A stretch of 62,529 bases of DNA, the filler included, from Moniliella sp. 'wahieum' (Eukaryota): assembly GCA_003971905.1 (NCBI GenBank). It is 4 parts of 4 records of this genome, joined end to end, with 100 filler letters (N's around TTAATTAATTAA, not from the genome) between each part and the next. Parts side by side here need not be neighbours in the genome. Positions count along the whole stretch, not along the records: positions 1 to 16,373 come from RSEE01000206.1; 3 more parts are not named here. One strand, given 5' to 3'. This document shows positions 5,265-50,512 of this stretch, piece by piece (position 1 is the stretch's first letter; the number at the start of each line of letters is the position of its first letter). A program made the position numbers and the translations under genes. Below the pieces are notes generated by a model. It was given only the letters and a program-made list of their open reading frames with translations, was not told where the DNA came from and did not search any database.

Positions 5265-5511
5265 TGTAGCGACGCGTGAAGGCTCTGACCTGGAGACACC
5301 TAGTCTCCAAACCAGAGACGATCAGCGAGTAGTAATCAAGTAACGACGTGAGCGAGAAGGGGAAGGGGGAAGGAGAGGTGGTGGCGAAGAGGACAGAGCA
5401 AGCAGTGGAACAGGAATGTACATGTGGCCTGCTGGCCTGCGCGCGGCAACTCTAGCGTCTAGCTTTCACATCTACGAATCAGGCAAGGCACCGGTGGGTG
5501 ACGTGGCAACA
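5265..5511. mobile_element. Solo LTR, family A, copy 1
   Basis: TG...CA termini (TGTAGC / GCAACA) flanked by 4-bp direct repeat GAAT (5261-5264, 5512-5515); near-identical reverse-complement copy at 35166-35374. Confidence 0.85.
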
Positions 5512-5716
5512 GAATCTATCGAGAAATGCATCTTCCATCTTCCCTCTTCCCTTCCCCCTTCGCTTCCGCGCCGCTTCGCATCATTGCTATAGACGGGATC
5601 ATGAGCCAGCACGGCTACGTAGCGTACCGACACTTGCGCGTACCGACACTTGTTGGGGTGCAATGGCAGATTCTTCGATTGCAGTGGGGTTAGTTCCCGG
5701 GGGTTTTACGTTTAGG

Positions 5717-6780
5717 CTAGCACGTGTCGAGCAACGACTTGGTCACCAGCTCATACACGATCCGTCGTCGTAGGTACGGCATGGTGGCCCCCGTAAAGTT
5801 GAACTCGTCCTCGTCCTCCTCGTCGTCGTCGTCGTGGTTATCTTGCCCGTGCGTCGAGTCGGTCCACGAGAGCGGCTGGTCCGGGGGCGTGGCGCACCCT
5901 GTGCCCGTGCCAAATGGCGGGGGGAAGGGCTCGAAGGGATCGCGTCGGCTGAGCTGCTCGAGCGTGGCAATGGCAAACACGCCACAGTCGTACCCGTTGC
6001 GCTGGGAGGGGAAGTGAGGCGGGACATGGTTGCGCCAACCGAGTGCGTCGAGGTCGAGTTGCGGGCCACCACGTTTGGCCTGGTGCTCGGCAACGAGCCA
6101 GGCGCGCACGTGGTGGAAAAACGCAGGGTTGGGCGCATGCATCGAGTCGTAGTACTCGATCCGTCGTCGACGCATGTCCACACACCCTGCTACCCAGTGC
6201 GCATTGCCCAGGTTGACTGGGAACAGTACCTTGTCCAGCGCAAACACGTCCACCCTTCGCGTCCAGCGCGCGACGGCCGACGGGCCCTGCTGCGCAATCT
6301 TGGCATAGAAAAACGACGAAAAGACGTGCACGGTCCAGTACGCTCGCAGTGTGTACGGCACCTTGGCTGCTTCGCCACGCGCAGGCTGGGACGCCTTGGC
6401 CTTGGCTGCCTCGGTACGCAGCGTCTGCGCCTTAGTCGCGCGCTGCGCAATCAGCACGCCGTAAAAGTTAATCGACTCGTCGTTCAACCACTGTCCCGGG
6501 CGCAACTTGGCCACATCGTGCGCGGTCACCTGCGCACCGGGGATGCTGATCCGCAGCGTCTTGTCCGCCAACGCGGACGCGACGACAGCCTCGTGTGCAG
6601 GCTCCAGCTGTGCTGGGAACGGCGGTCGACCCAGCACGCCCCGTAACCGTTTTTTTCCGTGCCGCACGCTCGGAACGCAGCCGCGCATATTCTTTCGCCT
6701 TGCCCGCACTCGGCCCCACTGACGACACGGCGTCCCGCTCCCGCTGCAAAAAGTACTCGGCCGCACGGTGTTGGTAGTAC
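5717..6780 (-). CDS. ULP1: Ulp1/SENP-type SUMO protease, C48 catalytic domain (terminal exon)
   Basis: LRPGQWLNDESINFY, HVFSSFFYAK, RWTRRVDVF, FPVNLGNAHW (catalytic His), IEYYDSM (Asp), QRNGYDCGVF (Gln/Cys); stop at 5717. Confidence 0.92.
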
Positions 6781-6896
6781 TGCCCTCACCAAACCAAACA
6801 AAACAATAACACAAGCCAACAAACCCAGCCGTCATTAGACACCCACACACACCGAGAGAGAGACAGAGCAAGTGGGACAGAGGGGGGGAAACGTAC

Positions 6897-9800
6897 CTCG
6901 TCCGTTCGCGCCGGAGCGCGGGGAAATGCTGCGGCTGGGGGGGCAAGTAGGCCGCTGGGTGTGGCTTCGTCGATGGTGCGCAAGACACGCGCACGTTTGA
7001 GGATGGCATCGAGGGTAGAACGGTGAGCGCGCGCGTCCCAGTGCCGCTGCGGCTGGAGCGTACGTAGCAGCTGCACCACCTGCGCCAACTTGGGGTTACG
7101 CCGTACCGCGTCGGTGGTACGTGGGCGCAGCGCCTGTCCATCCATCCATCCATCCATCCATCCATCCATCGATTCACCAATCCATCCATGCATCCATCCA
7201 TCCGTCGGTCAGTTCGTCGGCGTTCGGGTTTTCGGGTTGCGTCGAGCAAAACGAGCAAAAGAGCAAGCAGACAAGAGACGTACAGAAGGGAGCGACAACA
7301 TCGCGTCGGACCGGCGTGCATGATGAGCGGGAGAAGTAGCGTGACGAGAATAGGCGCTGTGGCGGACCAGCGTCGGCGCACGGAAGGGCACTTTGCGTGG
7401 ACCTCCATTGGCCACCATGGAAGCAGCACGGGGCGGCGGCGCGACGGGCTCGGACCTCGGTTCGTTGGGGGCTGTCCAACCCAAACCCACCGACGAGAAC
7501 CCATTCGCCGGCGCCGTCCAAGTCGCACTCGCATTCGCATTCAAACTGGCAGTCCCATTCGTATTGCTCGTCGTCATCGTTGGCGCCGTTCTGGGGGGGT
7601 GCGGGACGGCAGGCAAAAAGGAGGTGGGGGGACGATGCAAGGCTCTGGCACCAATTGCCGCCACGCGCGCTCTGGCAGATACGGACGCTGGTTGGCGTGC
7701 GACCGCACGCGCCAAAGGTGCCGGACGAAGGTGCGGGCGCAACGGCGGTGGGGCACCAGGGGCGGTGCGGGCGCAACAGGGCGCAACAGCACCGATCGGC
7801 GCCACGTCCAGTTTTCTTCTTCGGGGTCGCGTTCGCGTTCGGGGTCGGGCTGGAGATTGGGTGTGTCAGAGCGATCCACCTCAATCTCCATCTCCTCATG
7901 CTCCTCCTCTGCCTCGTTTTCGTCCTCGTCCATCGCTTCGTCGATGGATGGGTCTGGGTCTTGGGAGGACGTGCTAGCGACCGACGAACGCGAATGGGAC
8001 GGTCCGTCTTCGTCTTGGTCGTGCGTTTCGGACGCGTCGTCCGACGAGAGGAAAATGACCGAAACGTCATGCTCACGGCCCCGTTGCTTGACCTCCTCGT
8101 TTTGGGCTTCCTCCTCCTCTTCTTCTTCTCTCTCCTCCTCACCTTCATCATCATCATCATCTTCTTCTTCTTCTTCTTCTTCCTCCTCATCTTCGTCTCC
8201 GTCCTCCTCGCTTTCGGCCGGACGCAAGAAGGCAGCATACTCTCCCTCCTCGGATCCATCGGGCACATCCTTCTCAGCTTGGTCGGAACGGACAAACGCA
8301 TCGGTGCCGTCATACCCATCCGCCCCATTTGGTGCTTCCGACCCATCATCTGATCCATCCGACCCATCCGACTCATCAGACGAGACACCTGCCTCGCTCG
8401 TGGCAGCCTGAGCGCCATTCGCCGACCGATCGAGGGGTAGCAATGCACCCGCACCCACACCCGCAGCACCCAGCTCACTGCTCTCCTGCCCACCACGTAC
8501 ATGCGCCGCACCGGGTCCCTGCTCACGTGCCTCTGCCCGGTCGGCATCGGTCGCGTCCCCACTGGGCCCATTCGCACCGGGCCCGTTCGCATCGGACACG
8601 TTGGCATCACCCTCGTGCGCATCGGGCCCGTCCAAAGCGAGACGAAGTGTACCGGGACTGTGTGTTCCATCGTGCTTCCGTAGCTTCATACCTGCCTCTC
8701 CCTCTCCCTCTGCCTCCACCTCGCCCTCTGGCTCTCCCTCCGCCTCGCCCTCCCTCCCTCCCTCCTCCCTCGCCTCGCGCCAGCAGGAACGGGAGACAGA
8801 AGAAGGGCGCACGTGCGGCGCCTGCTCCATCGCGATCTCGGCCGAGGCTGAATCGGCCGTGGAATGCGCGGGTGGTACGGGACGCGTGGCGTCGTCGGCG
8901 TCGGCGTCGGCACGGGGCAGGGGTAGAGTAGCAGCGGCATAGAAGTGGGAAGGGGGATTGGGATCAGGATGGGGATTGGGATCAGGATGGGGATGGGGAT
9001 CGGAAGGCGCGGGGGCGGTGTGTGGTCCAGTGCGGAGCAGGACCGGCGGGTTCGGGGGACATCGTAGGTGAAAGGTGGGGCACAGACGATGGTTCGGCCG
9101 TAGGAGCCTCGTGGGGTTGGTGTACAACAGGACCAGGCGCTTCCACCTCGTTGCGACCTTCAGTTTGCTCCTGTTCAGCTTCAGGCGCAAGTTGAGGTGC
9201 ATGGGCAAAGTCAGGTTGAGGTGCAGGTTCAGGTTCAGGTTCAGGTTCCGGTCTGAGCTCGAGTTCAAGGTCGGGGTTGGGATGGGTCTGCGGCTGCAGC
9301 TCCGCAGCGGCGGAGGGAAGGGGGGCAGCTGGCTCGTGCGGGAGCAGCGGATGATGGGGTGGAGTCGAGCAAGGGGGGGTCGGCAGACGCTGCCTCGGGT
9401 CCGGCACCCGGGTCAAGAGCACCTGCTTTTCCTCCTCTTTCTCCTTCCCTTCCTCCTTCCCTTCCTCCTCCTCTGCCTTCTCCTCCACCACGATGTTGGA
9501 TTGGGACTCGAGATCAGGTGGGGGATGGAGCTCAGAGTGCTGACCCTCACTAGCCTTCTGCTCCGATCCCAATGCAACCGACGATTGCCTCAATCGATCG
9601 GCCTCAGGCTTGGACTCAGAGTTGGGCTCGCCATTGGGCTCAGAATGGGCTCCGCTCTGGACTCCGCTTTGGACTCTGCTTTGGGCTCGTCATTGGGTTC
9701 GTCATTGGGCTCGGGAATGGGCTCGGGAATGGGCTCCGCTTCGGGCTGCGTTTCGAGCTCGGAAATGGGCTGCACATTATCCTTGGGCCCGTGTCGCGTG

Positions 9801-10517
9801 GGGGCGAAGGCTGGACAGAGGCAGCATAGGCAACAAGGCCAAAAACGCTTCTACTTCCTTTCGCTCCGTCTCATCGTCGTCCTGGGCAGACGGGGACGCA
9901 TCCTTCGTCCGCTTGACCGCGCCATCGGCCAAGTGGTCCGGCGAGCGACGACGCTCTTTCCCCTTGCGACGTGTCGGACGCGGCGTTGCGGCTCTTGGTT
10001 CGTCCCCTTCTGAATGGGACGGCGGCAGGCTAGGCTGCGCGCTCCCCTCGTTTGCGTGGTGCCCAGGCGACGGCGGTGGCGGGGTCAGGTCCGAGTCGGT
10101 GTCGGTGTTGGTGTTGGTGTCGGACACGGCGTCGGCATGCGAGTCCGATGCAGACGCAGAAGCAGACGCAGAGGGAGGTGCGGGGGTGGATAGAGAGGCA
10201 GCCACATGGGGAGGGAGTGCGCCGGGGGAGGGAGGCCCGTGCCGGAAGCGCGTTGGGCATGGGCGGGAGGAGAGCATGCAGCGACGCGCTTTCGTCGGCG
10301 TCCAGCGCGTCGTGGGACACGTGGACAGACAGACGCGCGCGGCGCGTCGGCGGGGGAGGCAGCGCGGCGCCGGGGGGGGCGGGGCGCGTCGTTTGCGCGA
10401 CGGGGCGGCTGTCGTCGTTGCCGCTTCCGTGGCAGAGCTGGTGGTGGTCGTTGGTGCGGATGGCGATGGCGATGGCGATGGCGACGACGACGACGACGAC
10501 GACGACGGCGATGGCAT
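6897..10517 (-). CDS. Probable upstream exons / long low-complexity N-terminal region of the Ulp1-like protein
   Basis: Same strand, linked by apparent introns (~6780-6896; ~7134-7283) with GTACGT donors; overlapping long acidic and Pro/Glu-rich ORFs; candidate ATG at 10517. Confidence 0.5.
7139..7202 (+). repeat. (CATC)n microsatellite inside putative intron
   Basis: Interrupted ccatccatcc run. Confidence 0.8.
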
Positions 10518-11161
10518 CGCAACGATGGTGTTGGCGGCGCGAAGGCAGTGTCGGTGGGTCCCTCACTGGGAACCCACGCCAGCCGGATGACGTCAGCAGC
10601 ACCAACCGCAGGATGAAATTGCAAAAAAGCGTGTTCCGCCCCCTTCCGCCTGGAGGCTCCTACGATCTAAAGGGCCGACCACCTCGGATGTGTGCGGCCC
10701 CCCATCCGACGGGGAGAAAGAACAGGTGGCCAACAGCTGCCCCGAGCGCATGCTAAGAAATAGCGTTGCCTGAGGCCAACTCACGAAGGATCCACACCAC
10801 TCCGGCTGTGTTCGTCGGAATCACGCCAAGTCCCCGTCACACTTACACTCTTGCGCGCGTCTTCAAAAACGTCGGACTGTGGGGACAATAATCGCGAGTG
10901 GTCTAATACAACCAAGTACTGAACTTGGCAGTGGAAGGGAACAATTGGATCAGCCTCGTGCACGTCGAGTTGGCCCAAGAGCAGATGGTCATGCAGATTC
11001 TGCGAATACTTGACTGCTTTCCGCCCATGTCTCTTCGGCATCAGGTCAACTTGGTCTTCAACGTTTGAACACACAGTTGAGACTGATCCCGGATGTGTTC
11101 GAGACCCTGTTGCCCCATTTGACTATGCTCCCCTTCTTCTCTGCAGGACTGAGCTCGCATG

Positions 11162-12099
11162 TGTCACGGGCGGGCCCCGCCAGGGGGCTCACCCAGGTTC
11201 TTGGGGTACAATCCCTTAGGAGACGGAAGGACGACTCACGGTAGTTTCGGGCTTGGGCTGGTTGGTGTATCCGAGCGGAGCTAGGGACGAGAGAGGCCTT
11301 TGGTGGGGCGGTTGCACGTGTGGCAAGGCTGCGTCTGCACCGGCTTGGGCCGTAGTAACGTGTCTGAAGCCTCCGGGACTTAGGGACGGGAGGAGGCAGC
11401 GGCGGACAAACACTGCCTTAACTGGGACTGGGAATCGCCGCGACCGAAGGAGGGCTCGCGCGATTGGACTGACGAAGGGCTGGAGGACGAGGTCGGAGGA
11501 GATGTCGGACGCTAACAAGAGGAGCTGCCTGTACTGGATCAATTGGCTGGAAAACGGGGAGGAGTCGGACAGGATAGGCGGGAAAGGACGAAATGGAGGG
11601 TGAGGGAAAAGATCCCCCACCAACTACTGCAGGGGTACAGGCTAAATCAAAAGGGAAAACAGACACAAAAGGGTGTAGAAAGGAAGGCACGTCAAAAGGG
11701 GTTGATCGCCGCAGGCGCGATCGAGAAAGGAAAATAATTGGTGACGGGCGACGGACGTCGCAAAGATACTGAATACTTGGTGGTCTCGTTTCGACCACCG
11801 ACTTGGACTTGGGCGGGAGGCGACTGCTGTCGCGCGTACGCATGGCAACGCGGGCCACCGTACAGGGTGCAACCAACCATCGTCAAACTTGGTTGGGTTT
11901 GGGGGCGCGCTCCACTGGGCTGGTGCAGAGCAGGCGGGCCTTAGCTTGGATCACCATCGTGGATCCGGCGCGGCCCGTCCCATTACGCTCCCCTTCACAA
12001 GGCGTGTCCGCACGCCTTCCAGGTTGGGCTTCTCCTCCTCAACTCCATCAGGGGAGACTACATTGCCGATGGCGAACCTGGGGAACCGGGGTCGGGGCA
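11162..12099 (-). mobile_element. Putative 3' LTR of the chromoviral Gypsy element
   Basis: On the minus strand the purine tract AAGAGGAGTAG (overlapping the integrase stop) is followed directly by TGCCCCG; a candidate end ...CCCGTGACA at 11162 gives imperfect inverted termini. The left boundary is inferred. Confidence 0.55.
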
Positions 12100-13148
12100 C
12101 TACTCCTCTTGAAGGCGGGCCAAGGCCCGTTTGCGTGCTTGGGAGCAGTATTTCTCGGGGTGCTGGGTGTGGAACTCGATCACCACTGGAGCCTCATCCC
12201 CCATGTCGTTGGTGGGCACCCAATCGTTCTCTGACTCGGGGAAGCCGACGAAGGAGACCAGGTACTGGAACTGGCGACGGTAGCAACGGGAATCGAGGAT
12301 GCGTTTGACGAGCCAGTGTTCTTCGCCTCGCTCAACTTCGGGCGGTGGAGGTAAGGGCTCGTGTCGGGCTGGCACAGCATCGAAGCGGTACGGCTCGAGG
12401 GCAGAGATGTTAAGCACAGGATGGATCTTGATCGAAGGGGAAGATCAACCACATACGCCCCCTCATGTACCTTGGCCTTGATCTTAAATGGCCCCAAGTA
12501 CCTGCGCTTCAACGATCCACTCGGTCGAGTTGACGGCACCCGCTCCTGATCAACCAGGACCCAATCTCCCGCTTCCAGCTCCGGCGCCTCGCACCGTGAC
12601 CGATCGGCGCTACGCGCTTGGCCCGCTGGCGCGCCTGCTCCAAAGCTTCCTTGGCCGTCACAATCGCCTCGATCCGAGCCTCTTGATGTTCCTCCCCTGG
12701 CTCATTCTCTCGGACGGCCGCGACCGGGTCACCTGGTTTAAGCGGCTGGAACCCATGCATGATGTAGAACGGAGACAACCCTGTTGAAGCGGAGCGAGCG
12801 GTGTTGAGAGCGAAGGCGGCTGAGGGAAGGTACTCGACCCAATCGGACTGCAGATTGTTAACGAAATGGCGCAGATGAGTCTTAACCAGATCGACAAACC
12901 GCTCCGACTGCCCATCGGACTGAGGGTGTGCTGGGTGGTGGCCATGCTTTGGCGAATGCCATGCTTCTCGCAAAAGCCACGCACCTGGGACGAAGTGAAC
13001 AAGGTCCCTCTGTCGCTCACGATCTCGGTCGGCAGCCCATACACGTTGAACACCTTCCCCGTCAGCCGCTCAAGCAAACAACCCGCCGTGTCGCTGGAGC
13101 TGCACGGGATGAGCACCACCATCCCGATCCACCATCACACCAGCACCA
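12100..13148 (-). mobile_element. Ty3/Gypsy (chromovirus) integrase core plus chromodomain, frameshifted and 5'-truncated
   Basis: YGLPTEIVSDRGTLFTS, HPQSDGQSER, WVEYLPSAAFALN..S.STGLSPF, RYLGPFKI (GPY/F), chromodomain EEHWLVKRILDSR..QYLVSFVGFPESENDWVP. Confidence 0.93.
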
Positions 13149-13502
13149 TGTTCGGGCGGCATCGACGATTCCCACGTGAGCCTCATCTTCCATCGCGGTA
13201 TATACTGACTGGTGATGCTGTGGTGACTCTGTGGCAGATCGGACGGGATGCGGAGAGGTCACGGTTCTATGGTTGTGGATGGTGGTAGCGGTAGAGTATA
13301 TAAGGGGCATGCATTGGACTGGGGGGGGGGGTGGGGAGAGAAGTTCCGTACGGAGGTTACAGGGGGTATCGACCACTACTCCGGCGAGTGGCCGGAAGGC
13401 GCGCTGCCCAGGTGGCCTGCGAGTTAGTTAATAGTATATTCACAAGTCAGCATCTGCAGGAGTCAGTATATGTCCCAGTCGGAAGAAGGTCAGTGTCCAG
13501 CA
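13149..13502. mobile_element. LTR-like repeat, family B, copy 1 (abuts the truncated integrase)
   Basis: TG...CA ends; diverged reverse-complement copy at 34511-34874; no clear TSD. Confidence 0.7.
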
Positions 13503-14844
13503 GGGGTGTGCCGGCCGCTGCGCCAGCCGTACCCGCACCTCGTCCAGCAGCTCGAACGAGCTGGCGTCGCGCGCTACTGGGATCGCGTCCCGCCTGAAAG
13601 CACCTTACGGCGCATGTGGTGGCCGCAGCGTGCGCGCGACCCAGGTGACGGGAGGCTGGCGGGGAGCGCGAGCAGCCACTCCGCGGCGGCTGCGTTTGAG
13701 GCCGAGTGCGGGGCCCAGGCGCCCGCAGCAGCGGAACGCCGCAGCAGGCGGAATAGCACGTGCCATGACATAATGCACCGATCGGCCGGCAGCGTGGGTG
13801 TATTTGAGGCAGCGTCTGGTGGGCGCTGCCCCACACGCCCCCGCTAACCCACGCGTCTGCGTGCGCCCTCTCTGACGATTCCCGCCTGCTTTTTGTCCCG
13901 CTGGCCGGGGTACTGCCGTTTGGGAGTGCTGCTGCGGCTGCTCTTCCGCCCACGGCTCCACTCCCGCTCGTTCCACTGCCGATCCCCCTCTCCTGCTCCC
14001 TCCTCCTGGGGCTCCTAGTACTCCTGCCGCCCCCGCTAACCCGCCCTTGTCATCCCAGCTCTAGACATATGTTCCGAAATGGATGGGAAGATTCCGCTCC
14101 TGAATTGGGCGCCAGAGGAGCAAAAGTACCTGGGTAGCCTCCGTGCCCTCTACTGGAAGGATTTGGGTAGAAATCATTCCTCCGGCCGGCCGTCCAAGCC
14201 TGTCACGGGGCGGCCTGGCTGGGTGACCCGTGAGCGCCTACCGCTGACCAACGCTGTAGGCGCCGCTGGCAGCGGCCACCAGATGTTGGTGCGCGCAAAC
14301 AAATAATCCAGCGCCGCCACCGCCACCGCCACCACCGGCACCACCACCACCACCACCGCCACCCCACCCCAAGACTCATCACCACCACCACCACACCACT
14401 TCTTCTGCCACCCCCACTTCACTCACCGCACACACCCATGAACTGACGCACATCGTCCATACCAATGCTTCGTTTAGCGCTAGCAAGCCTCCATGTGCCC
14501 CGTCTCCAATGGTGGGTGTGGCGATGCATGTGATGCATGCCCCCAACAGGGCATGCGTACCGCTAACTCCATGCCAAGTTTTGAGCCAGAACGGATGAGA
14601 GACGGCTGAGATATGGACAATTTGGTACCAGCGGCATACACCAACATCACACCTCCGCCTGCCACGATTAAAGCCTCACCCGCACCGCGGCACGCCTCAT
14701 CCAAGCCTCACGCTGCAGCGTACTCCCTAGACATATGTTGTCAGCATCATTGGTGATTTTCAATTTGAAATCGGCCACCACCTTGTTCCAAAAACCACTA
14801 GGTGAAGAATCGCGAGCCCGGTTGGTGAGAATCGTACAAGGTCT

Positions 14845-15386
14845 GGGTGTTGTGGGTCGGGTTGGGTAGGGTTAGGGATGGGTGGGTGTAACTTCTCAAC
14901 GGTGCGTCCAATGGAAAAACGGAGGCCATATGCTGCATAGAGCGGACGATTTCGTAGCGAGCTATCGTCGAGGCCATCGGAGGGTGGGTGTTGTGGGTCG
15001 GGGTGGTAGGGTTAGGGATGGGTGGGTGTAACTTCTCAACGGTGCGTCGGATGGCGAATCTGAGGCCATATGCTGCATAGAGCGGACGATTTCGTAGCGA
15101 GCTATCGTCGAGGCCATCGGAGGGTGGGTGTTGTGGGTCGGGGGGTAGGGTTAGGGATGGGTGGGTGTAACTTCTCAACGGTGCGTCGGATGGCGAATCT
15201 GAGGCCATATGCTGCATAGAGCGGACGATTTCGTAGCGAGCTATCGTCGAGGCCATCGGAGGGTGGGGTGGGTTGGGTCGGGGTGGTAGGGTTAGGGATG
15301 GGGGGGTGTAACTTTTGAACGGGTGGTCCAATCGAAAACGGAGGGCATATGCTGCATAGAGCGGACGATTTCGTAGCGAGCTATCG
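14845..15386 (+). repeat. ~140-bp tandem repeat x4, each unit carrying a telomere-like GGGTAGGGTTAGGG tract
   Basis: GTTAGGGATG recurs at 14871, 15011, 15150 and 15291; the unit bodies (ATATGCTGCATAGAGCGGACGATTTCGTAGCGAGCTATCG) are near-identical. Confidence 0.93.
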
Positions 15387-16373
15387 CCTCGGCATAACTC
15401 TCTCCCCTTCGGTAGCGAGCTATCGCCTCGGCATAACTCTCTCCCCTTCGGGTAGCGAGCTATCGCCTCGCATAACTCTCTCCCCTTCGGGTAGCGAGCT
15501 ATCGCCTCGGCATAACTCTCTCCCCTTCGGGTAGCGAGCTATCGCCTCGGCATAACTCTCTCCCCTTCGGTAGCGAGCTATCGCCTCGGCATAACTCTCT
15601 CCCCTTCGGGTAGCGAGCTATCGCCTCGGCATAACTCTCTCCCCTTCGGGTAGCGAGCTATCGCCTCGGCATAACTCTCTCCCCTTCGGGTAGCGAGCTA
15701 TCGCCTCGGCTAACTCTCTCCCCTTCGGGTAGCGAGCTATCGCCTCGGCATAACTCTCTCCCCTTCGGGTAGCGAGCTATCGCCTCGGCATAACTCTCTC
15801 CCCTTCGGGTCGAGCTATCGCCTCGGCATAACTCTCTCCTCCCCTTCGGTAGCGAGCTACGCCTCGGCATAACTCTCTCCCCTCGGGTAGCGAGCTATCG
15901 CCTCGGCATAACTCTCTCCCCTTCGGGTAGCGAGCTATCGCCTCGGCATAACTCTCTCCCCTTCGGGTAGCGAGCTATCGCCTCGGCATAACTCTCTCCC
16001 CTTCGGGTAGCGAGCTATCGCCTCGGCATAACTCTCTCCCCTTCGGGTAGCGAGCTATCGCCTCGGCATAACTCTCTCCCCTTCGGGTAGCGAGCTATCG
16101 CCTCGCATAACTCTCTCCCCTTCGGGTAGCGAGCTATCGCCTCGGCATAACTCTCTCCCCTTCGGGTAGCGAGCTATCGCCTCGGCATAACTCTCTCCCC
16201 TTCGGGTAGCGAGCTATCGCCTCGGCATAACCTCTCTCCCCTTCGGGTAGCGAGCTATCGCCTCGCATAACTCTCTCCCCTTCGGGTAGCGAGCTATCGC
16301 CTCGGCATAACTCTCTCCCCTTCGGGTAGCGAGCTATCGCTCGGCATAACCTCTCCCTTCGGGTGCGAGGCTA
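15373..16373 (+). repeat. 40-bp tandem array (~25 copies) running to the contig end
   Basis: Unit GTAGCGAGCTATCGCCTCGGCATAACTCTCTCCCCTTCGG repeated head-to-tail, with mostly single-base indel variants. Confidence 0.97.
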
Positions 16374-16473
16374 NNNNNNNNNNNNNNNNNNNNNNNNNNN
16401 NNNNNNNNNNNNNNNNNTTAATTAATTAANNNNNNNNNNNNNNNNNNNNNNNNNNNNNNNNNNNNNNNNNNNN
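16374..16473. other. Artificial contig linker
   Basis: N44-TTAATTAATTAA-N44; stop codons in all six frames. Confidence 0.98.
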
Positions 16474-16739
16474 CTGCAGCCTGGAAATAAATAGAAATCG
16501 ACACTAGTGTCAAATTGCATTTGTGGCCGTCAAATAATCGATCAGCCATACCAACTGTATCACTGAACATACGTCTAGGTTGGCCTCAAAGACCCACGAC
16601 CGTCGTCGTCATTGTACGCTTCAACATCTATGACAGGTGCTCGGATGCTTCTGTAGTGCATGTACTAGAGTGCATGGAGAGGTAGGCTGAATGATGGTAT
16701 GCATTGCTATGTTCCTATACATGCTTGGTGTTGAAGACA

Positions 16740-16990
16740 GGGAGCAGAGGCGTGGAGATGGGGAGCAGAGGCTTGGGGATGGAGAGCGTGGGTGGAGGGC
16801 GCAGGCTTGGAGATGATGGGCAGAGGTTGGTGGCGAGTACAAGCTTGGGATGACGAGCACAGGCTTGATGGGGAGTGCAGGCTTGGAGATGATGAGCACA
16901 GGCTTGGTGGCGAGCACACGCTTGGGGAGAGAGCGCAGGCTTGGACATGATGAGCACAAGATTGATGGCGAGCGCAAGCTTGGACGCAAC
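16740..16990 (+). repeat. Degenerate short tandem repeat (~21-bp unit, core GCAGGCTTGG)
   Basis: Repeated (GC)AGGCTTGG/AAGCTTGG followed by AGATGATG or TGGCGAG variants. Confidence 0.7.
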
Positions 16991-17544
16991 AGACAGAGCA
17001 CGACGATGTACTTGCACATGGGCTACTCGAGCTTGAGCATGGCCCGGCGAGCGTTGGGATGGGGGCAATGACGAGGGAGAGTGGAAGGATGAGAGGCAGA
17101 ACACTGGTGCAAGAGCGGGTCAGAATGAGGCAGGGTGGCATGGGATGGAATGGGATGGGATGCGTACCGATGCGCTCAGGTTGCACATGGCCAAGGCGGC
17201 GGTTGGGATGAGCATCCCAAGCAGGGTGACAGCAGGGGCAGCCAAGCGAGTGCACATGGGCCGGCGCAGAGCGTCGGACGGGGACGGCATGGCAAGCTGC
17301 ACGGTCTGCTGGGACGGGTGCGAGGCAAGTGGGTACATGGGCGAGACGAGCTTCCAGATGGCCAAGCCAAGCGTCCAGACGGCCCACTCAAGCGCGGCAG
17401 CGGTGGCAGCAGCCGAGACGGTGACCTTGGACGGCCAGGACGCCAGACCGAGGCCAGCAAGCATGCACAACGCCATGCACCATCCCCTGCACCATTCCCT
17501 GCTTCCGCTTGGCCGGCCCGACGGTGGCGATGGCCGAATGAATA

Positions 17545-17600
17545 GTGATGGTGGCCGAGTCAATGGTGGGGATGGCCGAGTCAGTGGTGGGGATGGCCTG
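17545..17600 (+). repeat. 21-bp tandem repeat (2-3 copies)
   Basis: TGGCCGAGTCA(A/G)TGGTGGGGA repeated. Confidence 0.65.
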
Positions 17601-18224
17601 GTCGTGCGTGGGAGGTGGGAGCGCGGCGCTGGGGCGGGTGGGGAGGGCAGGGGGACGTGAGAAAGCCGGCCCGGGACGGGTGGGAGGTGGCTGCAGAGAC
17701 ACAGAAGCTGGGCAGACGACAGAAGCGTGTGGGTCAGCGGAGGCCTGGGGGGTGGCAGATGAGGCGCGGGAAGCGTGAAGTGGAAGATTGGAGGCTCAGA
17801 ACGAGGGGTTTAAACGAGGCAACAGACCTTGGGGGGCGGGCAAAGCCAGCCGGGTTGGGGGGGGGGGGCGTGGTAAGAAACCAACCAGATCCGTCGCCTG
17901 GCCCGTGCATTCATCCGCGCGCTGCTGGCTGAAAATATTAACATTTGCAATTGCACCGATGCACGCGCAGCCTGCGCGGTCAGATTGGCTCGGCCGCCAC
18001 CAAATCGACCAAGCCGCCACCACCACCAACGCATCCACCGCCACACGCCCGTTCTCCATCGCGGTGCATCGTCTTGCGCCCCACGCGTGCGCGTCTGAAA
18101 GAGGACTACCTGGGGCACGCTACGCCACCACTCGTGCTCTGACTCGTCCCAAATTGGGGGGCACCGACGCTGTTTGTTGGGACCGTGCGCCGTCGGGACC
18201 GCACCTGAGGTAATTGGATGTGGT

Positions 18225-18725
18225 GTAACCTCAATCCTGGACCGAATCAAAAGCGCATCATCATTCTTGAAAGCCTTGATTCTGGGCTACGCTACACCGT
18301 TGACAGATCTCTGATTCGTCCAGAATTGGTTGAACGCCGCCAGCATCAACATCGACCATCCGCTGTTTGGACCTAACCTCTGATGTTCACATGTGGTGTG
18401 ACCCCAATCCGGGCCCAATCTGCGTGCCCCTGACCTCCCATGGAAGCCCTGCTTCTGATGCAAGATGTGCATGTATGCAATCTATTGTTTGATGAGGATT
18501 GGTGCTGTGCCGGCACCGTCAACATAGACCCTCATCCGAATCAAGCTAACATCAGATGTTGGGCGTGTGTTCTGACCTCAATGCTGGACCAATCCTGGAG
18601 CGCCTTACCTCCCCTGGAAGCCCTGCTTGTAGTGCACGATGGGGCGCGACGATCTCTGACATCCGACGACAACTGGTGGAGCGGCGGCGCCATCAACACC
18701 CACCTGCCCGTGTTTGGACCTGCTG
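18225..18725 (+). repeat. Degenerate ~174-bp tandem repeat x3
   Basis: CCTCAATxCTGGACC-like motifs at ~18229/18402/18577; TGGAAGCCCTGCTT at ~18441/18615; (C)RTCAACA at ~18344/18518/18691. Confidence 0.65.
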
Positions 18726-20004
18726 TGCACCATCGCTTCAGCTGGAGGACAGATGCAGATGGTAGTCGATGTAGGCCTGCCCTGGTGGAAGGCGAGGGAG
18801 TACGCTGCAGCGGGAGGCTTGGATGAGGCGTGCACTGAGCGGGAGCGGCTGGGATCGATGCATGCTGGGATGAGATGGTGGCGTATGCCGGCGGGACCAA
18901 AATGGCGATATCTCAGCCGTCTCTCATCCGTTCTGGCTCACATTTGGCATGCTACCAACGGTAAGCAAGCACTGTTGGAGGCATGCATCAGATCCTCCAT
19001 CTGCCTCACGATCAGGGGCAACGCGCATAGAGGTGTGCTAGCGCCAAATGAAGCACGGATATGGACGATGCTCACCACGAGACGGCCATGCATGGTGACA
19101 TGGGTGGTGGTGGTGGTGAAAGTGGTGGTGGTGGGGGTGGCGGCGCTGGATTAATGGTTTGCGCACACCAACATCAGATGCGCTGCGCCGGCAGCGCGCA
19201 CAGCGGTGGACAGCGGTCGGATGGCCACAGGCCAGAGTCGGGACTGGACACGGCGCAAGCAGCGTTGGAGGGCCGGCTATATTTGCTCAGGGCAAGCTCA
19301 GCGCACTGGTGTGCACTGTCCTGATCTGCAGCATGCATCGAACCACAGTTGGCATTTGCACCCCCAGGCCCACCCGGCAGTACAGCAGGGCCGCACTTTT
19401 GCAGTGAATCCCAACCGAGCTGGACCGAAGGCCTGAACGTTGAAGGCCTGAGGCCTGGGCGCTGGGCGTTAAGCACTGGCAGCTCAGACTGAGCGCTGGG
19501 CCTGAGGGACGTGCGGGAGCGCGCTGCCAACGATGTACCTGAGCGCACACCCTGCGCCACTGCGTCCTCCTCCGCAGGAGGCCGCCCCCCCCGCTCCGGC
19601 ACGCGGCATCTTGGCAGCAGCTGCAAGCATTGCGCGTCACGCTTTTGCAGCTCCAGGCCAGCCCCGGCGTTCAACATTCAACGCTCACCGGTAACGCACG
19701 TGGATGCGGTCGCCTGTCGGGCGTACCATCGTCACCAAACCGCGGCGTCCACAGCGCGTCGCATGTCACACACCATTGTAACCCACCCTCACACGTACAT
19801 GCAATGCCCATCCGGTGATGCCACCGCGGTTGCACTCTGGCTCCACCCCGCACGGAACATTCCCCGCCCCGGACCCTGTCACATCCGTTGCCGCATGCGG
19901 CGTTAGCGTGTGTCACATGTCACATGGCACATGCCGTGTTAGCGGGCGGCACATGCGGGCTAATTAGTAAGTAGCCCCATGCCGATCCTTTCGAGCTGGC
20001 ACCG

Positions 20005-20195
20005 CCAGGACACTGGCCCCGCACCCAAACTGTCAGAGGTCACCAACCGTCAGGCACCTCCCTTCGCCCTCCGCACGTTTCAGACGGGCCAGCGTAAACT
20101 CTGCATTCCAGGACACAGGCCCCGCGCCCAAACTGTCAGAGGTCACCATCTGTCAGGCGCCACATTTTCGCACTTACACACTGTGGTGCCTGACA
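20005..20195. repeat. Cluster of direct and inverted TGTCAG-containing repeats; possible DNA-transposon end
   Basis: 41-bp direct repeat at 20005 and 20108; 14-bp inverted repeat 20151-20164 / 20182-20195. Confidence 0.55.
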
Positions 20196-21537
20196 TTTTG
20201 CAACCTCTGCAATTCTGAGACGAAAAACGTCATTTTCATAGAGAAAATCGACGGAGTTATGCAGTCCTTCACGTGAATATCTGACTAGGAGGGCCATGAT
20301 CCGACTCCAAGATCAGGTCGCAGACGTCCGCGAAGCCGTAAGTGGGGTAAACGAAATACAACATGAACTCCATAAAGCGCAAAACGGAAAGTTCTTCATG
20401 AGATCATGACGCGGACGGCCACATGTCGCAGGCCACTGCGAGCCAGGATGAAGACGCAGAAAAGCGGACTCGAGATGCTGTTGGCCAAGTCCGCCCTATG
20501 TCTGTATGCCTCCATTTTTCATCTTCAGATGATTAAGGCTGACCACAGCATCTTTTTCCGTTTAAAGGCATTTTGGTTTTGCAGCGCAAGTACATTAAAC
20601 AGCTAGTCATGCGTTCCATGAAGGCTCCTTGGGAAGCGTCTCATCTAGGTGCCTTTGTGCGGTATGTACTATCTATCTTGAATCGCTCGAGACCCAGCTT
20701 TCTCTCTGACAAAAGGAAGAAAAGGAAGGTTGGGTTGAGCAGGAATGGGCCAAAAGTCACGTTGCCAGACCAAGGCCTCCTGGCACCGTTATCGATGCTG
20801 CAACTGATGATAAAGGGTGCCTAGGCAAAGAAGTACGGGCAAGAATAACGCTAGCCATAGCGGTCATCCGCTACGAGATCGTAACTAATGTGCGTATCTT
20901 CAATTGGTTCCTTTCCTCTTCACGGTACATTCTGAACGCTTCTACCCGAACCCACTTGCAGGTGGAGACGCACCACTGGGTAAGTAAGGCCCGCGGGCCC
21001 ACGTTGGGTGTCGTCAGTGTCGCCTCATTTCACAAGAAGGTTGTCAAACACAACCTGGGAGAGTATGACCACAACCTCAACGGCGTGGAGGGCAGGATCC
21101 TTCCGGCGATGCGCATTCCCATCCTCCTTCATCTCTGTCTCGATTTGCTGAATATACAACCAGGTGGAGAAGCTGTCTAACGGACTGTGAAACCAGTGGG
21201 GCATTTCACTGGATGCCATCCCTGAGACTCCGGTGCAACTGTACCCGCTGATCCTCGTCGCAGCGCCTGTGATACTAACCCTTCGAACACATGTGGTGAC
21301 CTGGCACGATATGCAATACCAATCTATCCAAATACCAGATCTTGGTTTAATTATAGGATTAGCCATTATTATTGGATAGTTCCCCATTGGCAAGAATAAA
21401 CGTGTACGCAACAGGAGCAGTCATAGTCCTCGATGTCGACAGTGTCATCGGGAGACATTGATGTCGGGGTACCCGGGGACATCTATGCTATCGTTGGAGA
21501 CCTATTACCCCTATGGTATCACCCACGTCAATGACCC

Positions 21538-21592
21538 CCGACGTCTAAGGCACTCACGACGTCTAAGGCATCCACGACGTCTACGGCATCTT
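21538..21592 (+). repeat. 18-bp tandem repeat x3
   Basis: CGACGTCTAAGGCA(CT/TC)CA repeated. Confidence 0.7.
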
Positions 21593-22144
21593 TGGTAGTG
21601 CTGTCATCGCCGACATATTTGACGTGAACCCTATCATTGATAGGGCGTAACCCTTTGATGTTTTCCCCTTCCCTGATGTCTTTGATACCCTGAGCGAGTC
21701 TCGTATCCATGTCGCCAATGACATCCATTTCGTATCTGACATCATGGACATCACTACCGTCCCCGTCATCGAGAACAGCTGCGTTATTTACTTGATGTCT
21801 ATGACATCAAAGTAAAGGTCCTCAAACTATAACAGTCATGATCGTCATGATAGTCATGGATGTCAGAAAGGGGTCGGTAGTGTAGAGATTTCAATGAAAA
21901 GAGAAAACATGTAACACAAGCAGTGGGGGCAACACAAGAGTGGTGACGACAACGAAGTAGTGACGAATCATAGCAAGAGGGGTTAGCGCTTAGCGCTGTA
22001 TATGTTGGTGGGCAGGTGTCATGTGGACACGATATCTTGGGAGCCTGCGCCCACGCCGGCCGCTGCAATCAAAGCGGGCAACGGAAGCAAAATCCAGCTC
22101 CCAGCTCAAGGCGCATAGCTCAAAGAAGGCGCCTAGCTCGCAGC

Positions 22145-25100
22145 TCATAGCTGCGCTTGAATCAGGTCGTAATAGCGTCCTTGATGGGCCACGAGTTCGT
22201 CGTGCGAGCCCGACTCGACACAGACGCCATCGTCAATCACGTTGATGGTATGAGCGTGGCGGATGGTGGTGAGGCGATGGGCAATGATGCAGGTTGTGCG
22301 ACCGCGAGCGGCGCGGTCGAGCGCCGCTTGGACGGAAGCTTCGGACTCGGTGTCGAGCGCACTGGTTGCCTCGTCCAAAATCAAAATGTCGGGGTTGCGC
22401 ATGAGGGCGCGCGCAATGCACAGCCGTTGCTTTTGTCCGCCGGACAACTGGGCGCCCTTGTACCCAATGTCGGTTTCAAACCCATCCGGCAGGCCACGGA
22501 CAAAGTCGAGAATATGAGCTTCGCGACAAGCTGCCTCGACCTGCTCTTGGGTGACGTCTTCGGGCTTGTTGGCGCCGAGGGACAAGTTCCAAAAGATCGA
22601 GCCCGAGAAGAGGACAGCGTCTTGGCTGACATAGGCCATTCGGCTCCGCAGTTGCTCCAGCGGCACGCTGCGAGCATCGATCCCGTTCAGTCGTACGGCT
22701 CCCTTGCTCGGATCGTAATAGCGCTGTAGCAGAGCCAAGATGGAACTCTTGCCTGACCCGCTGGGTCCGCAAAAGGCCGTCGTCTGTCCTGCCTTGAGGG
22801 TGAGACTGAGGTCTTTGAGGGCCGGATGCTTAGGCCGCATCGGATAGCGCATCTCTACATGATCAAAGGTGATGTCCCCTTGGGGCATGGCGGCCAAGTC
22901 GGCCGGACGGAGAGAGCGGGGAGGAAGGAGGGAGGTACGCGACGCGCGGTGTGCGCTGGGCCCAGGCGGTAAGAGTGCGGAGCGAAGCAAACGCACGTCC
23001 ATAGTCCGGAACATACGTTAAGACCTTACCCGAGGAAAACGCGGCAATAAACGCACCCTCGATCCAGCGTACATCTTGGACAGGCTGAGCTGGCCCGAAG
23101 CGAACAGATGACCACCCCAGAAGAAGCCCAAGGCACAGACAAAGTAGACCAACGAGCTGCCCAGACTAAATCCAAGCGATCCAGCAAGCAAGTACATCGT
23201 CCGACTCTTGTCCGCCTTGGCTCGTGCTGCAAACACGCGCATCGTCTCGGCTTCCCTTCCCAGCGCGGCCACGGTCCGGATGGAATCCATGTTTTCCGCA
23301 ATGTAGCTTGCAGCGCGGTCGAGGGGTTGTTGAGCGCGCGTCTCAAATCCTTGGAGCATGACCACGTTGAGCCATCCCGACACGAGCAACAGCACAACCG
23401 GAGCCAACACCACCACGGCCATCTTCCAGCTCAAGATGAAAGTCATAATCACGCTTCCGAGCACATTGGCGGCGGTATTGAGGACTTGGAACAAGACGGC
23501 ACCGGAAGCGGCAGCGACCGCGGTCGGGTGGTTGGCTACCGCCGAGGTCAGACCGCCGGCCCCTGCGCCTTCCGCATCGAAAAAGCCAATTTCTTGGCGC
23601 AACAACTTGGCCAGCGCATCGGCGCGAATCACGCGGCTCATGCTTTCCGACACGTTTTCCAAAAAGAACGAGGCCAGCAAGGAAACGAAGAGAACGACAA
23701 TGGCCAACACAAAGAACCACAGCGCCCATCGTTCCGTCTCGTGTCGCATCAGATGATTGTTGTCGTGGATACTGAGGGAGCCCACTGCCTTGCCCACCAT
23801 CCACCCACTCACCGGCAACGACGCTCCCACGCCCAAACTCGCCACAAAGCCAATCAGGAACTGCCACGGGTGGAGGGAAATGTAGTAGATCAAGGTGCGG
23901 AATGCGGGCCAGACCCGACATGGGGCAACTGGGCCGGATCCGCTTGCTCCGACGATTCGGGAGCGGGTGCCGGGTCGAGGAGGGGAGCAAACGTAGGTGG
24001 GTGGGTGATGGCGGTGTGGAGTCCAATCGGGGCAGCAAAGCCGTGCTTGTTGGCAGAGGGGTCAGGCAGGATGTGCTTGGTGGACGGGGAGGAGGCAGCG
24101 CGTATCGGCCCGACGGGAAGAGTGGTAGCATCGCTCAACACGACTGTGGCAGTTGGGGTGGCACACTCCGACGCGTTGCCCTCTGCTCGCTCCTTTGTTT
24201 CGTCCAACGGTGTTCCGAGATCCGTGTGCGTAATGGAACGTTGTTGGAGAACCATGTTGCGGTAAACCTGGTTTACCCGCCCTGGCTGCATCAGTTCGTC
24301 GTGGGTGCCCTCATCAACCTTGGAGCCATTGGCGATGACGACAATTTTGTCCGCATTCTTGACCGTTGACAGACGATGCGCGATGACAATGCAGGTCATC
24401 CCGCGCTCCGCCTGTTCCTGCTCCAACATGACCTTGATTTTCTCTTCGGTGGCACTGTCCAGGGCTAGGTAGGGTCAGCACCGCACATTGTCTCATGGCA
24501 TGGCCAGAAAGGGGGAGCACGTACCAGAAGTTGCCTCGTCCAGCAGAAGGACCAGAGGCTGCTTGATGAGCGCACGGGCGATCGCGATGCGTTGCCGCTG
24601 GCCGCCGGAAAGGACACCAGTACGACCACCGGATACTTGTGTGTCCCATCCGTCGGGGAGGTTCTGGACAAACTCGTAGGCCTGTGCTTTGATCAGGGCC
24701 TCCTTCACCTTGGCAGCAACGACTTGCTTCCGTGCAGCGCGATCGGGAGGTGCGTCGGGTGCGCCATCCAAGTCAGGGAAGTATTCCCACTCTGTCCCAG
24801 TCAGCCCGCAGCTACATTCTCAAATACCGAAGCCGTGAAGATCGAAGGGTTTTGCTGGACGACAGCGACTTGGGACCGGAGCCAACGGAGGTTGAGTTGG
24901 CGGACATCGTGATCGCCAAAGAGGACGTGACCACTACCTTGGACCTTGGTTGTTGGTTCGGGCTGCCCCGACAGAGATCGAGAGTCCATTCCATCGTCGC
25001 CTTTCTTTCTGCATCCTGCTGTCCGGGTGAGGAACGCCACCTGCGCCAAAAAGGAGGTGTCTCCTCTTTCTCGCCATCCAGGGCATGCTGTTTCTTCTCT

Positions 25101-26560
25101 TCTTCGGCATGCATCGCCTCGTACGCCGTGTCCGACGGGTTGGGAGGAACATAAGGGTCGTACTCACGCAACAAGAGGCTAGCGACCGTGCTCTTTCCTG
25201 AACCCGAGGGCCCGACCAGCGCAGTAACCCGACCTCCGGGCACGTGCAGCGTCACATCCTTGAGCGACGCCACGTTCGGTCGGGAAGGGTAAGCAAACGT
25301 TACCTCCTGCAAGTCCACGGAGGGGCCGAAACGAACGCGAGTATTGGATGAGTTGTCCGCTTCAGACGCGGATTCGGTACCAAGGAGCTCGGGTTTAGAG
25401 GGCTGCAGACCCGACGGGTCGCGCACATCAATGTATGGTACGCGTTCGATCGAGTTGCGCAAAACTTGCAGCGAAGCATGAGCATCCATGAGGGTAGGAA
25501 TGTGAGGCGCCACGTTGGCCAGGGCGAACAGGGAGTTGAATGAGTTCCAAAAACTGGTCAGGGCCGAACCGACGCTCTTGCCGTCCTGGACGATGACCCC
25601 GGCATAGTACATGCTCAAAGAGTAGACGATAAAGATGATAAAGTAGACGATCGACACCTCGCAGCTCTTGATGAACGCACGCCCGATGCCAAGCCGGGCA
25701 AGACGACGAAGGAGGTCGTCGTTAAGCTTTCTAAGCAGGGGGCCGTTCATGCCAAACGACTGGATGATTCGGACGGAAGAGATGGCTTGTTCAACCAGGT
25801 TGCCTGTCAGGCCTTCGAGACGCAGCGCGGGTGCCGACACCTTTTCTGCAAAGTAACCAGTCACGCCAAATGCAAGGAGCAGAAAAGGAATCAGGCTAAA
25901 CAAGACGCCAGCCATGCGATCGGAATTGCAAAAGGAAGAGATGAGTGCGGCAATGAGGGTGGCACAGGCCCAGATCAAATACGCCACCTTCTCGCCCCAT
26001 CCAACACGGATGAGATTGGTGTCTTTGCCGGCTCGGGTGGCGATCTCACCTGGGCCATGAACGTCAAAGTAGGTGGCATCCTGGCTTAGTATACTGGCCA
26101 CGTATGCATGTTGGAGGCGCATGCTCATCAGGTGACTGGCGGCGCTGAAGCAAGTGAGGAAGATCCATGTGAGGAAGGCCTGAACGAGGCCGACAATGCT
26201 AATGAGGCCAGCGGCAAGACGCGAGGAGGACATCATGGAATGTGGGGTGGCACTGGCTGAGGTGAGACCATTGGTCCACTTGAGGCCGTAGACGAGATCG
26301 ATGGAGATCTGGCCGCCGCCCGAAATGAAAGCGGCGGCAAAGCCGGTAGCATAGAGCAAATAAGGAAGATAGTCACGGAAGGTGCGGCGGTCGCGAGGGC
26401 TTCCAGGGGCACGGGTGAAAGAAAGGAGGTAGAGGAAGGTGGGCAGGGTGCTGTGATGCACCTGCAACTCGGCCGCGCCCTCATTGCGTGCTTCGTCCCG
26501 AGCAAGCGCAGAGGGCGAGACAGCGACGGCGGCGTCTGGGCTGGCTACGGCGGCGGCCAT
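22145..26560 (-). CDS. Full-length ABCB/MDR (P-glycoprotein-type) ABC transporter; introns and indels
   Basis: ATG at 26560 (MAAAVASP); [21 protein letters not shown]1 [50 protein letters not shown]2 [23 protein letters not shown]2 [32 protein letters not shown]; stop at 22145. Confidence 0.94.
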
Positions 26561-34318: not shown

Positions 34319-34510
34319 ATTCGGCACCATGCTCTCCCCCCTCTCTCTTCGGAGAGAGGGGGCCTTTGCACTCCTGAAAGCCAACCTACAGAACCATATA
34401 CGACAAATTGGCAAAGAAAAAAGAGTGGAAAAGAAAGTGAATTTGCCGTTTGATCCCTCTCTCCGGCTTGTTGCCTCTCTATTACGGAGCCACCCTGTAA
34501 GGCTCCGACT

Positions 34511-49934: not shown

Positions 49935-50135
49935 GAGAGGGCCGAGGGGGATAGCGAGCTACCCGAAGGAGAGAGAGAGTTATGCCGAGGCGATAGCTCG
50001 CTATAAAATCGTCCGATCTATGCAGCATATGCCCTCCGTTTTCCATCCGACGCCCGTTCAAAAGTTACACCCACCCCACCCTAACCCTCACCCCCCTCAC
50101 CCACCCCACCCTAACCCTCACCCCCCTCACCCACC
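49935..50135 (-). repeat. Reverse-complement copy of the 40-bp/140-bp junction with CCCTAACCC tracts, at contig start
   Basis: GCTACCCGAAGG..GAGAGTTATGCCGAGGCGATAGCTCGCTA..AAATCGTCCG..TATGCAGCATATGCCCTCCGTTTT..AAAAGTTACACC..CCCTAACCC matches 15285-15420 reversed; the CCCTAACCC tract is duplicated with a 30-bp period. Confidence 0.92.
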
Positions 50136-50301: not shown

Positions 50302-50319
50302 TAACCCCTAACCCTAACC
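50302..50319 (-). repeat. Short interstitial telomeric tract (TAACCCCTAACCCTAACC)
   Basis: About three CCCTAA-type units directly abutting LTR family C copy 2. Confidence 0.75.
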
Positions 50320-50512
50320 ACTAGTTGGTTCGTCTGCTTCGTGGGCCAACCGACTTAGTGGTCTGAGAGCTGCAAGGTTCTGTAGCTCGAGTTATCTTTT
50401 CTTCTTTTTCCCTACTTTGCGTATAAGTAGGACGACCCCTCGCGGGTATACAATGCTAGTCTTTACCACACCCACCCCCTTTGGCTTGCCTGGTAGACTC
50501 CGCTACTTTACA
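50319..50512. mobile_element. LTR-like repeat, family C, copy 2 (truncated)
   Basis: Reverse complement of 40444-~40640; keeps the CA terminus at 50512, other end replaced by telomeric repeats. Confidence 0.75.

Follow-up and report, generated by a model that had tools for sequence, protein, structure and literature searches.

A cassette of two adjoining tandem arrays, a proximal one of 140-bp units and a distal one of 40-bp units, closes the first of the four contigs in the stretch of DNA analyzed here (62,529 bases of assembly GCA_003971905.1, hereafter the window) and recurs in inverted orientation at the start of the fourth. Each 140-bp unit carries a degenerate, telomere-like G-rich tract whose G strand points toward the contig end. 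The origin of this cassette at a chromosome end is probable, because of the telomere-like tracts, their polarity, the layered structure of the copy in contig 4, and the outward junction common to both contigs. As to its present state, we tentatively prefer to read it as a subterminal satellite, homogenized by recombination, under a TTAGGG cap that was not assembled; this is favored since TTAGGG relics survive in the window and since there is no evidence that the host belongs to the Microstromatales, the yeasts whose non-TTAGGG chromosome ends offer the nearest parallel.

Structure of the two tandem arrays

The window contains contigs 1 (positions 1-16373), 2 (16474-34218), 3 (34319-49834), and 4 (49935-62529), separated by three joints, each composed of 44 N, TTAATTAATTAA, and 44 N. 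The artificial spacer begins directly beyond position 16373, and therefore the assembly break at which the distal array stops is a real contig end. The positions of all features are given in Table 1.

Table 1. Features of the cassette and its surroundings, in window coordinates
Feature	Position	Strand	Description
Proximal array, contig 1	14844..15386	+	140-bp unit x 3.9; Tandem Repeats Finder, 93% matches; alignment
G-rich telomere-like tract, unit 1	14845..14886	+	contains GGTAGGGTTAGGG; G strand toward contig end
G-rich tracts, units 2-4	14982-15026, 15122-15165, 15261-15306	+	G strand toward contig end
Distal array, contig 1	15373..16373	+	40-bp unit x 25; Tandem Repeats Finder 25.2 copies at 15373-16369, 96% matches, 3% indels; continues to contig end
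Artificial joint, contigs 1/2	16374..16473	.	44 N, TTAATTAATTAA, 44 N; non-genomic
Variant 40-mer, contig 4 start	49935..50003	-	~1.6 copies; inverted relative to contig 1, again pointing to contig end
Single 140-bp-type unit, contig 4	49985..50135	-	88.4% identical to junction unit 4 of contig 1
Telomere-like tract, contig 4	50068-50135	-	C-rich on +; perfect 30-bp unit x 2.3, 100% matches (Tandem Repeats Finder)
Telomere-repeat relic	50306..50319	-	perfect (CCCTAA)2.3 on +; cassette polarity; adjoins dispersed repeat; 370 bp inside contig 4
Degenerate chromovirus (Ty3/gypsy) fragment	12103..13134	-	integrase core (rve), SH3_Tf2-1 (Tf2-type SH3), and Chromo only; without reverse transcriptase
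Dispersed repeat, proximal flank of contig 1 array	14237..14728	+	inverted copy near left end of contig 2 (18795-19220), 77-83% identity
Dispersed repeat, contig 4 flank	50325..50510	+	inverted copy in contig 3 (40448-40633), 90% identical
OPT oligopeptide transporter, first gene inside contig 4	51024..53652	-	spread over three overlapping frames

The initial annotation, made from the sequence alone, described four ~140-bp units with an outward G-rich tract, and this description was confirmed by the 3.9 copies of the proximal array and by the motif GGTAGGGTTAGGG, which occurs exactly once in each of the four units. A 42-46-nt run of G clusters opens each unit and is followed by a body of ~95 bp. 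Units 2 and 3 do not differ from each other and show 94% identity to unit 1; unit 4, at the junction with the distal array, is 86-89% identical to units 1-3. The 14-mer GGGTAGGGTTAGGG, by which the tract was initially characterized, is exact in units 1 and 3 and is not found in this form in units 2 and 4. The presence of the same degenerate G-rich tract in all four units points to duplication of whole units rather than to independent additions by telomerase. As DNA, the 140-bp unit folds no better than shuffled sequences on either strand (z = 0.52 and -0.15).

The resemblance of the G-rich tracts to telomere repeats goes beyond chance. The motif GGGTTAGGG occurs 8 times in the window, compared with 0.41 occurrences expected, and none of 100 shuffles reached this number. 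Four occurrences fall in the units of contig 1, two in the unit of contig 4, and one in the contig 4 relic at 50306; the remaining one, at 55034, stands alone and is apparently fortuitous. All seven non-isolated motifs lie within ~400 bp of the cassette ends and have their G strand directed toward the nearest contig end. Further, the four longest clusters of G runs on the plus strand are the four 140-bp units, and the longest cluster of C runs is the tract of contig 4.

The distal array also agrees with the initial description, which gave ~25 near-identical 40-bp units running to the assembly break. Compared with an ideal array, its 1001 nt of 40-mers contain no substitutions, 15 deleted bases, and 5 inserted bases; 15 of the 25 full units are exact 40-mers, and 7 of the 20 differences fall within the last 200 nt. 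This pattern of indels looks like read or consensus error on truly identical copies. A gradient of homogeneity is thus seen between the two layers, with 0-14% difference among the 140-bp units and no substitutions among the 40-mers. The outward strand of the 40-mer contains 15 C, 9 G, 10 T, and 6 A, the C and G counts being those reported initially. Given this C-rich composition and a unit length of 40 nt, the array is unlikely to be a telomerase product; the initial annotation likewise called the composition unlike that of a normal telomerase product.

The 40-mer begins with 14 nt (GTAGCGAGCTATCG) that also form the conserved end of the 140-bp unit, which indicates that the 40-mer originated at the tail of the last unit before being amplified. 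The similarity of the remaining 26 nt to the 140-bp unit is not significant (203/2000 shuffles score as high), and the MAFFT alignment suggests, weakly, a 40-mer composed of the unit tail plus a 13-nt insert. Derivation of the 40-mer from the entire 140-bp unit by deletion was also considered and was dropped, only the first 14 nt being clearly common to both. The dyad symmetry of the 40-mer is modest (24 of 40 positions, a value reached by 434 of 20000 shuffles). For the 40-mer dimer, a DNA hairpin of -19.5 kcal/mol is predicted on the minus strand (z = -4.4), the plus strand having z = -1.1.

Exact scans of metagenome and prokaryote contig collections with a 32-nt core of the 40-mer gave no matches, and neither did a scan of metagenome contigs with a degenerate 41-nt pattern of the 140-bp unit body or a literature string search for a 15-nt stretch of the 40-mer and for the complement of that stretch. 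No Rfam family was found at gathering score over the whole window; a permissive Rfam scan of positions 13500-16373 yielded only six sub-threshold, chance-level matches and no hammerhead ribozyme.

The same junction occurs inverted at the start of contig 4, as noted in the initial annotation. Positions 49941-50119 align by blastn to the units and first 40-mers of contig 1 on the opposite strand with 84-89% identity, and the switch from the 140-bp to the 40-bp repeat is at the same base in both contigs. Moreover, unit 4 of contig 1 and the contig 4 unit have 7 derived states in common relative to units 1-3. The flanks inside the two cassettes are unrelated; together with the common junction, this implies two loci that share one block consisting of the junction unit and 40-mers. 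In the outward direction, contig 4 is composed of the dispersed repeat, TGGTTAGGGTTAGGGG, ~170 bp of unique sequence, the G-rich tract (30-bp unit x 2.3), one body of the 140-bp type, ~1.6 variant 40-mers, and the contig end. Because the C-rich tract of contig 4 is itself a perfect 30-bp repeat, the tract can expand independently. Between the two cassettes, the unit shows 11-16% difference, and the 40-mer is also variant.

Overall, the cassette is present at two of the six true contig ends in the window. The idea of a shared end cassette is supported insofar as two contig ends have it in common, with the same outward polarity and unrelated flanks.

The segment of 170 bp between the contig 4 relic and the contig 4 G-rich tract was examined as a candidate older copy of the unit and rejected, as 695/1000 and 999/1000 shuffles score as high. 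The sequence of contig 4 is garbled over its last 28 nt. In the final, incomplete 40-mer of this contig (49941-49975), the palindrome TAGC-GA-GCTA reads TAGC-TC-GCTA, that is, its 2-nt center is inverted relative to the consensus. This could be a hairpin-flip variant or poor sequence at a contig end.

Host placement and known chromosome-end systems

The taxonomic position of the host was assessed mainly with the Ulp1 protease encoded in contig 1. All named relatives of this protein are from Ustilaginomycotina, with 42-52% identity, and belong to Moesziomyces, Sporisorium, Pseudozyma, Testicularia, Ustilago, Malassezia, Tilletia, Exobasidium, Jaminaea pallidilutea, and Parajaminaea phylloscopi. 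Among the 150 matches listed, the Microstromatales clusters have ranks 27 and 35 with 46-47% identity; in the same list, clusters of Ustilaginales and Malassezia show 46-50%, and two Malassezia proteins 52%. The maximum-likelihood tree of the catalytic domain was built from 27 rows (the window protein, 20 named proteins, and 6 Logan proteins, the last 340 residues of each). In this tree, the window protein pairs only with one Logan protein (100/100), the deeper forks being without resolution, and the Microstromatales species J. pallidilutea and P. phylloscopi form a clade of their own (100/100), with the window protein outside. The best named matches of the ABC-transporter ORF are from S. kandeliae (46%), P. 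phylloscopi (45%), and Kwoniella (44%); with Kwoniella so near the top, the ABC transporter carries no taxonomic signal. A protein atlas comparison was likewise uninformative about taxonomy. Judging from these protein comparisons, the host is probably a smut-related basidiomycete of the Ustilaginomycotina that has no close named relative and falls outside the sampled Microstromatales clade.

The closest parallel to the cassette is found in Microstromatales. In excerpts of Brejova et al. (NAR 2026, PMC13234504), four yeasts of this order are described in which TERT and Tpp1 are absent and no TTAGGG-like repeat is present. Motifs of 41-178 bp, repeated in tandem, form their chromosome ends, in arrays that are 1.6-21.6 kb in length and sensitive to BAL-31; the motifs are mostly specific to one end, some being common to several ends, and at some ends the proximal repeat is different from the distal one. 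TERRA-like RNA (that is, resembling telomeric repeat-containing RNA) and telomeric circles were detected, and the excerpts propose an origin by amplification of subterminal repeats, similar to alternative lengthening of telomeres (ALT) and to events in U. maydis and yeast type I survivors. Other Exobasidiomycetes examined there are said in the same excerpts to retain canonical telomeres.

The window resembles these genomes in the subphylum to which its host is assigned, in the long non-TTAGGG units (40 and 140 bp in the window, 41-178 bp in those yeasts), in the proximal and distal layers, and in a motif common to some ends (two contig ends here). Both are GC-rich: ~60% is given for J. angkorensis in the excerpts of PMC13234504, and GC content is 50-66% in the 2-kb windows of the stretch analyzed here. 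The difference is that, as described in these excerpts, the terminal position was proved there by BAL-31 digestion and chromosome-level assemblies, whereas it is putative here. Further, the excess of GGGTTAGGG and the (CCCTAA)2.3 repeat, short relics rather than arrays, have no counterpart in the species covered by the excerpts. The 40-mer motif has no occurrences in one supplementary file of PMC13234504.

Other systems share some of these properties. The yeast Y' elements, which contain internal telomere tracts, are amplified in type I survivors, and UTASa of U. maydis is their counterpart in smuts (excerpts of PMC10532341 and PMC13234504). Like the cassette, they are described there as tandem subterminal units with short telomere tracts between copies, common to several ends and amplified by recombination. 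On the other hand, these elements are kilobase-sized and encode a helicase, whereas the units found here are 140 and 40 bp long and non-coding.

The endonuclease-deficient Penelope-like elements (PLEs) Coprina and Athena also have, according to excerpts of PMC13159263, a fixed polarity at chromosome ends and telomere repeats flanking each copy. In contrast to them, the cassette has no reverse transcriptase and no hammerhead, and its 140-bp units carry a telomere-like tract that was copied along as a fossil.

In Chironomus, chromosome ends consist of long repeats and telomerase is absent. Composite telomeres of Meloidogyne, cited in the excerpts of PMC13234504, are likewise made of complex tandem units and independent of telomerase. 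The cassette is similar to both in having complex tandem units, here at contig ends; the organisms are distant, however, and there is no evidence of telomerase absence here.

Origin of the cassette and alternative explanations

The following scenario would account for a subterminal satellite. An old telomere tract, now degenerate, may have been captured in a 140-bp unit, which was then duplicated a few times. The 40-bp unit would have arisen at the tail of the last 140-bp unit with reuse of its final 14 nt, the reuse itself being apparent from the alignment, and could have expanded distally by slippage or unequal exchange. Its uniformity may be kept by copying of the recombination type, namely, break-induced replication, unequal exchange between sisters, or a rolling-circle process with a small circle as template. 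For survivors of Kluyveromyces lactis, a "roll-and-spread" model has been put forward. The block of junction unit and 40-mers, found at at least two ends, would have passed between ends by recombination; given that its two copies are ~12% diverged, such a transfer would have occurred some time ago. The true tip would most likely bear an ordinary TTAGGG cap beyond the assembly, unreached by the assembler because a repeat common to several ends breaks the assembly graph. The putative (CCCTAA)2.3 relic of contig 4 speaks for a telomerase-using organism. The flanks, with a chromovirus fragment, dispersed repeats that recur in other small contigs, and genes for transporters, of which one has a broken frame, are typical of chromosome-end regions.

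Several points weigh against a subterminal satellite under a TTAGGG cap. Nothing in the window marks these contig ends as chromosome ends, and tandem arrays break assemblies anywhere. At neither cassette end does the assembled sequence contain a TTAGGG array beyond the 40-mers. With no substitutions over 25 copies, the distal array is more uniform than most subtelomeric satellites, and this uniformity is no less compatible with a terminal array under active copying. Finally, the polarities of the G-rich tracts in contigs 1 and 4 are not independent, because the cassettes are homologous.

An alternative that we consider possible, if rather unlikely, is that the 40-bp array is the telomere itself, non-canonical and telomerase-independent, and maintained as in Microstromatales by ALT-like recombination or a rolling-circle mechanism, the 140-bp array being a proximal repeat with a TTAGGG fossil. 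A precedent exists in the Microstromatales, where arrays of long non-TTAGGG motifs occur at all ends according to the excerpts of PMC13234504. The two-layer layout with units of 140 and 40 bp matches, a distal array with no substitutions is expected from copying of a tiny template, and contig 1 stops inside the array with no TTAGGG beyond. However, the host lies outside the sampled Microstromatales clade on the Ulp1 tree, and the identity of its Ulp1 to those of Microstromatales (46-47%) is no higher than to other orders among the 150 matches listed. Moreover, TTAGGG-like tracts survive here and are, as described in the excerpts of PMC13234504, entirely absent in the species studied there; the outward strand is C-rich; and the array is assembled over only 1 kb in contig 1 and 65 bp in contig 4. 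No TERT or Tpp1 domain turned up in the 133 window ORFs covered by the general Pfam scan.

It is doubtful that the cassette is an internal satellite, that is, either a heterochromatic array that broke the assembly or the relic of a head-to-head fusion with contigs 1 and 4 as its two arms. Such a satellite would be in line with the tendency of tandem arrays to end contigs wherever they are located, with the chromodomain-bearing retroelement fragment nearby, and with the dyad symmetry of the 40-mer (24/40) and its hairpin on the C-poor strand (z = -4.4), and the opposite orientation of the cassette in the two contigs is that expected for a fused end-to-end palindrome. Yet both junctions are of the proximal type (unique sequence, 140-bp units, 40-mers), and no junction from 40-mers to unique sequence is seen at the six contig ends; the two supposed arms differ by 11-16% in the unit and also in the 40-mer variant. 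In any case, the telomere-like tracts and their polarity require a chromosome-end origin for an internal satellite as well.

The remaining two explanations have little in their favor. The initial annotation mentioned a telomere-targeted retroelement, in which case the 140-bp units would be heavily 5'-truncated 3' tails of an endonuclease-less Penelope-like element (Coprina or similar) re-capped by telomerase, and the 40-mer an internal repeat of the element. The build of the units, a telomere-like tract plus ~95 bp in head-to-tail order and fixed polarity, agrees with this, as does the location of Coprina, which lies between telomere repeats at the chromosome ends of fungi (excerpts of PMC13159263). 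We nevertheless regard it as very unlikely. Of the 157 stop-to-stop ORFs with 140 aa or more, 133 were covered by the Pfam scan; near the arrays, where 137 ORFs with 50 aa or more were listed, a second scan covered 86, the 51 omitted being ORFs of the contig 2 left end and ORFs scanned already. Neither scan revealed a reverse transcriptase, PLE, or other such domain except the chromovirus integrase fragment, there is no hammerhead ribozyme or other Rfam family, and the identical degenerate G-rich tract in all units points to duplication of whole units.

An assembly or library artifact, such as adaptor concatemers or a chimeric read, is hardly credible. The array does contain ~2% indel errors, rising at its end, with 7 of the 20 in the last 200 nt, and the end of contig 4 is garbled over 28 nt. 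However, the 40-mer grows from the 140-bp unit, with which it has 14 nt in common and which is itself anchored in unique genomic sequence, and the same junction emerged independently in the assembly of two loci whose flanks differ, which makes an artifact unlikely. To our knowledge, the 40-mer unit resembles no adaptor sequence.

It seems improbable that a lineage of Ustilaginomycotina outside the sampled Microstromatales caps its chromosomes with a recombination-made, fully uniform 40-bp array, copied from a very small template, and retains the fossil of the former TTAGGG in 140-bp units. Were this the case, the window would hold a transition state that, in the wording of the excerpts of PMC13234504, was wholly erased in the species studied there. 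Natural telomerase-independent telomeres of fungi would then not be limited to one order, and, since the locus would show such an end built atop a decayed TTAGGG tract, the origin of non-canonical telomeres would become testable. If a TTAGGG cap follows beyond the assembly, as in the reading we prefer, the cassette would be an ordinary but clean subtelomeric satellite, seeded by a telomere tract and homogenized through exchange among ends; its main use would be as a marker in completing the fragmented assembly. Either way, it belongs to an already known kind, the subtelomeric satellite or the telomere of the Microstromatales type.

Neighboring genes and other repeats

Contig 1 contains, in addition to the genes of the ABC transporter and the Ulp1 protease, the degenerate chromovirus fragment and a dispersed repeat, followed by the array. 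In contig 4, the overlapping ORFs of the OPT transporter match adjoining portions of the Pfam profile. The distribution of this gene over three frames implies a frameshift, so that it is either a pseudogene or affected by an assembly indel. The ABC transporter genes of contigs 1 and 2 were considered as parts of a duplicated subterminal block; this was rejected, as they show only generic ABC similarity, with 27% identity in the ATPase part. A search with the RRS1 fragment, set to longer lengths, gave no matches.

The 13-mer CTAGACATATGTT was observed in exact form twice in contig 1 (14061-14073 and 14727-14739, plus strand), where it brackets a 666-bp segment common to contig 2. A third copy with one mismatch is located at 16566-16578 (minus strand), ~100 bp from the left end of contig 2. 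These three matches, compared with 0.01 expected, have one orientation relative to the nearest contig end, and no convincing alignment was obtained downstream of the copies. Possibly, CTAGACATATGTT is the terminus of an unidentified repeat element.

The left part of contig 2 contains several unrelated tandem repeats, at 16740-16983, 17337-17598, and 18219-18641, with periods of 39/76 bp, 21 bp, and ~173 bp (x3), respectively. This stack is situated distal to the segment homologous to the pre-array flank of contig 1. The left end of contig 2 may thus be a third end region of like kind, built of different repeats.

Finally, a perfect 11-bp hairpin, CCCCCTCTCTC-TTCG-GAGAGAGGGGG, was found at 34337-34362, 18 bases inside contig 3 at its left end. 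With a CT-rich arm and a TTCGG center, it is reminiscent of the CTCTCTCCCCTTCGG part of the 40-mer, but blastn gave no significant match. This hairpin may be a fold-back at the contig end.

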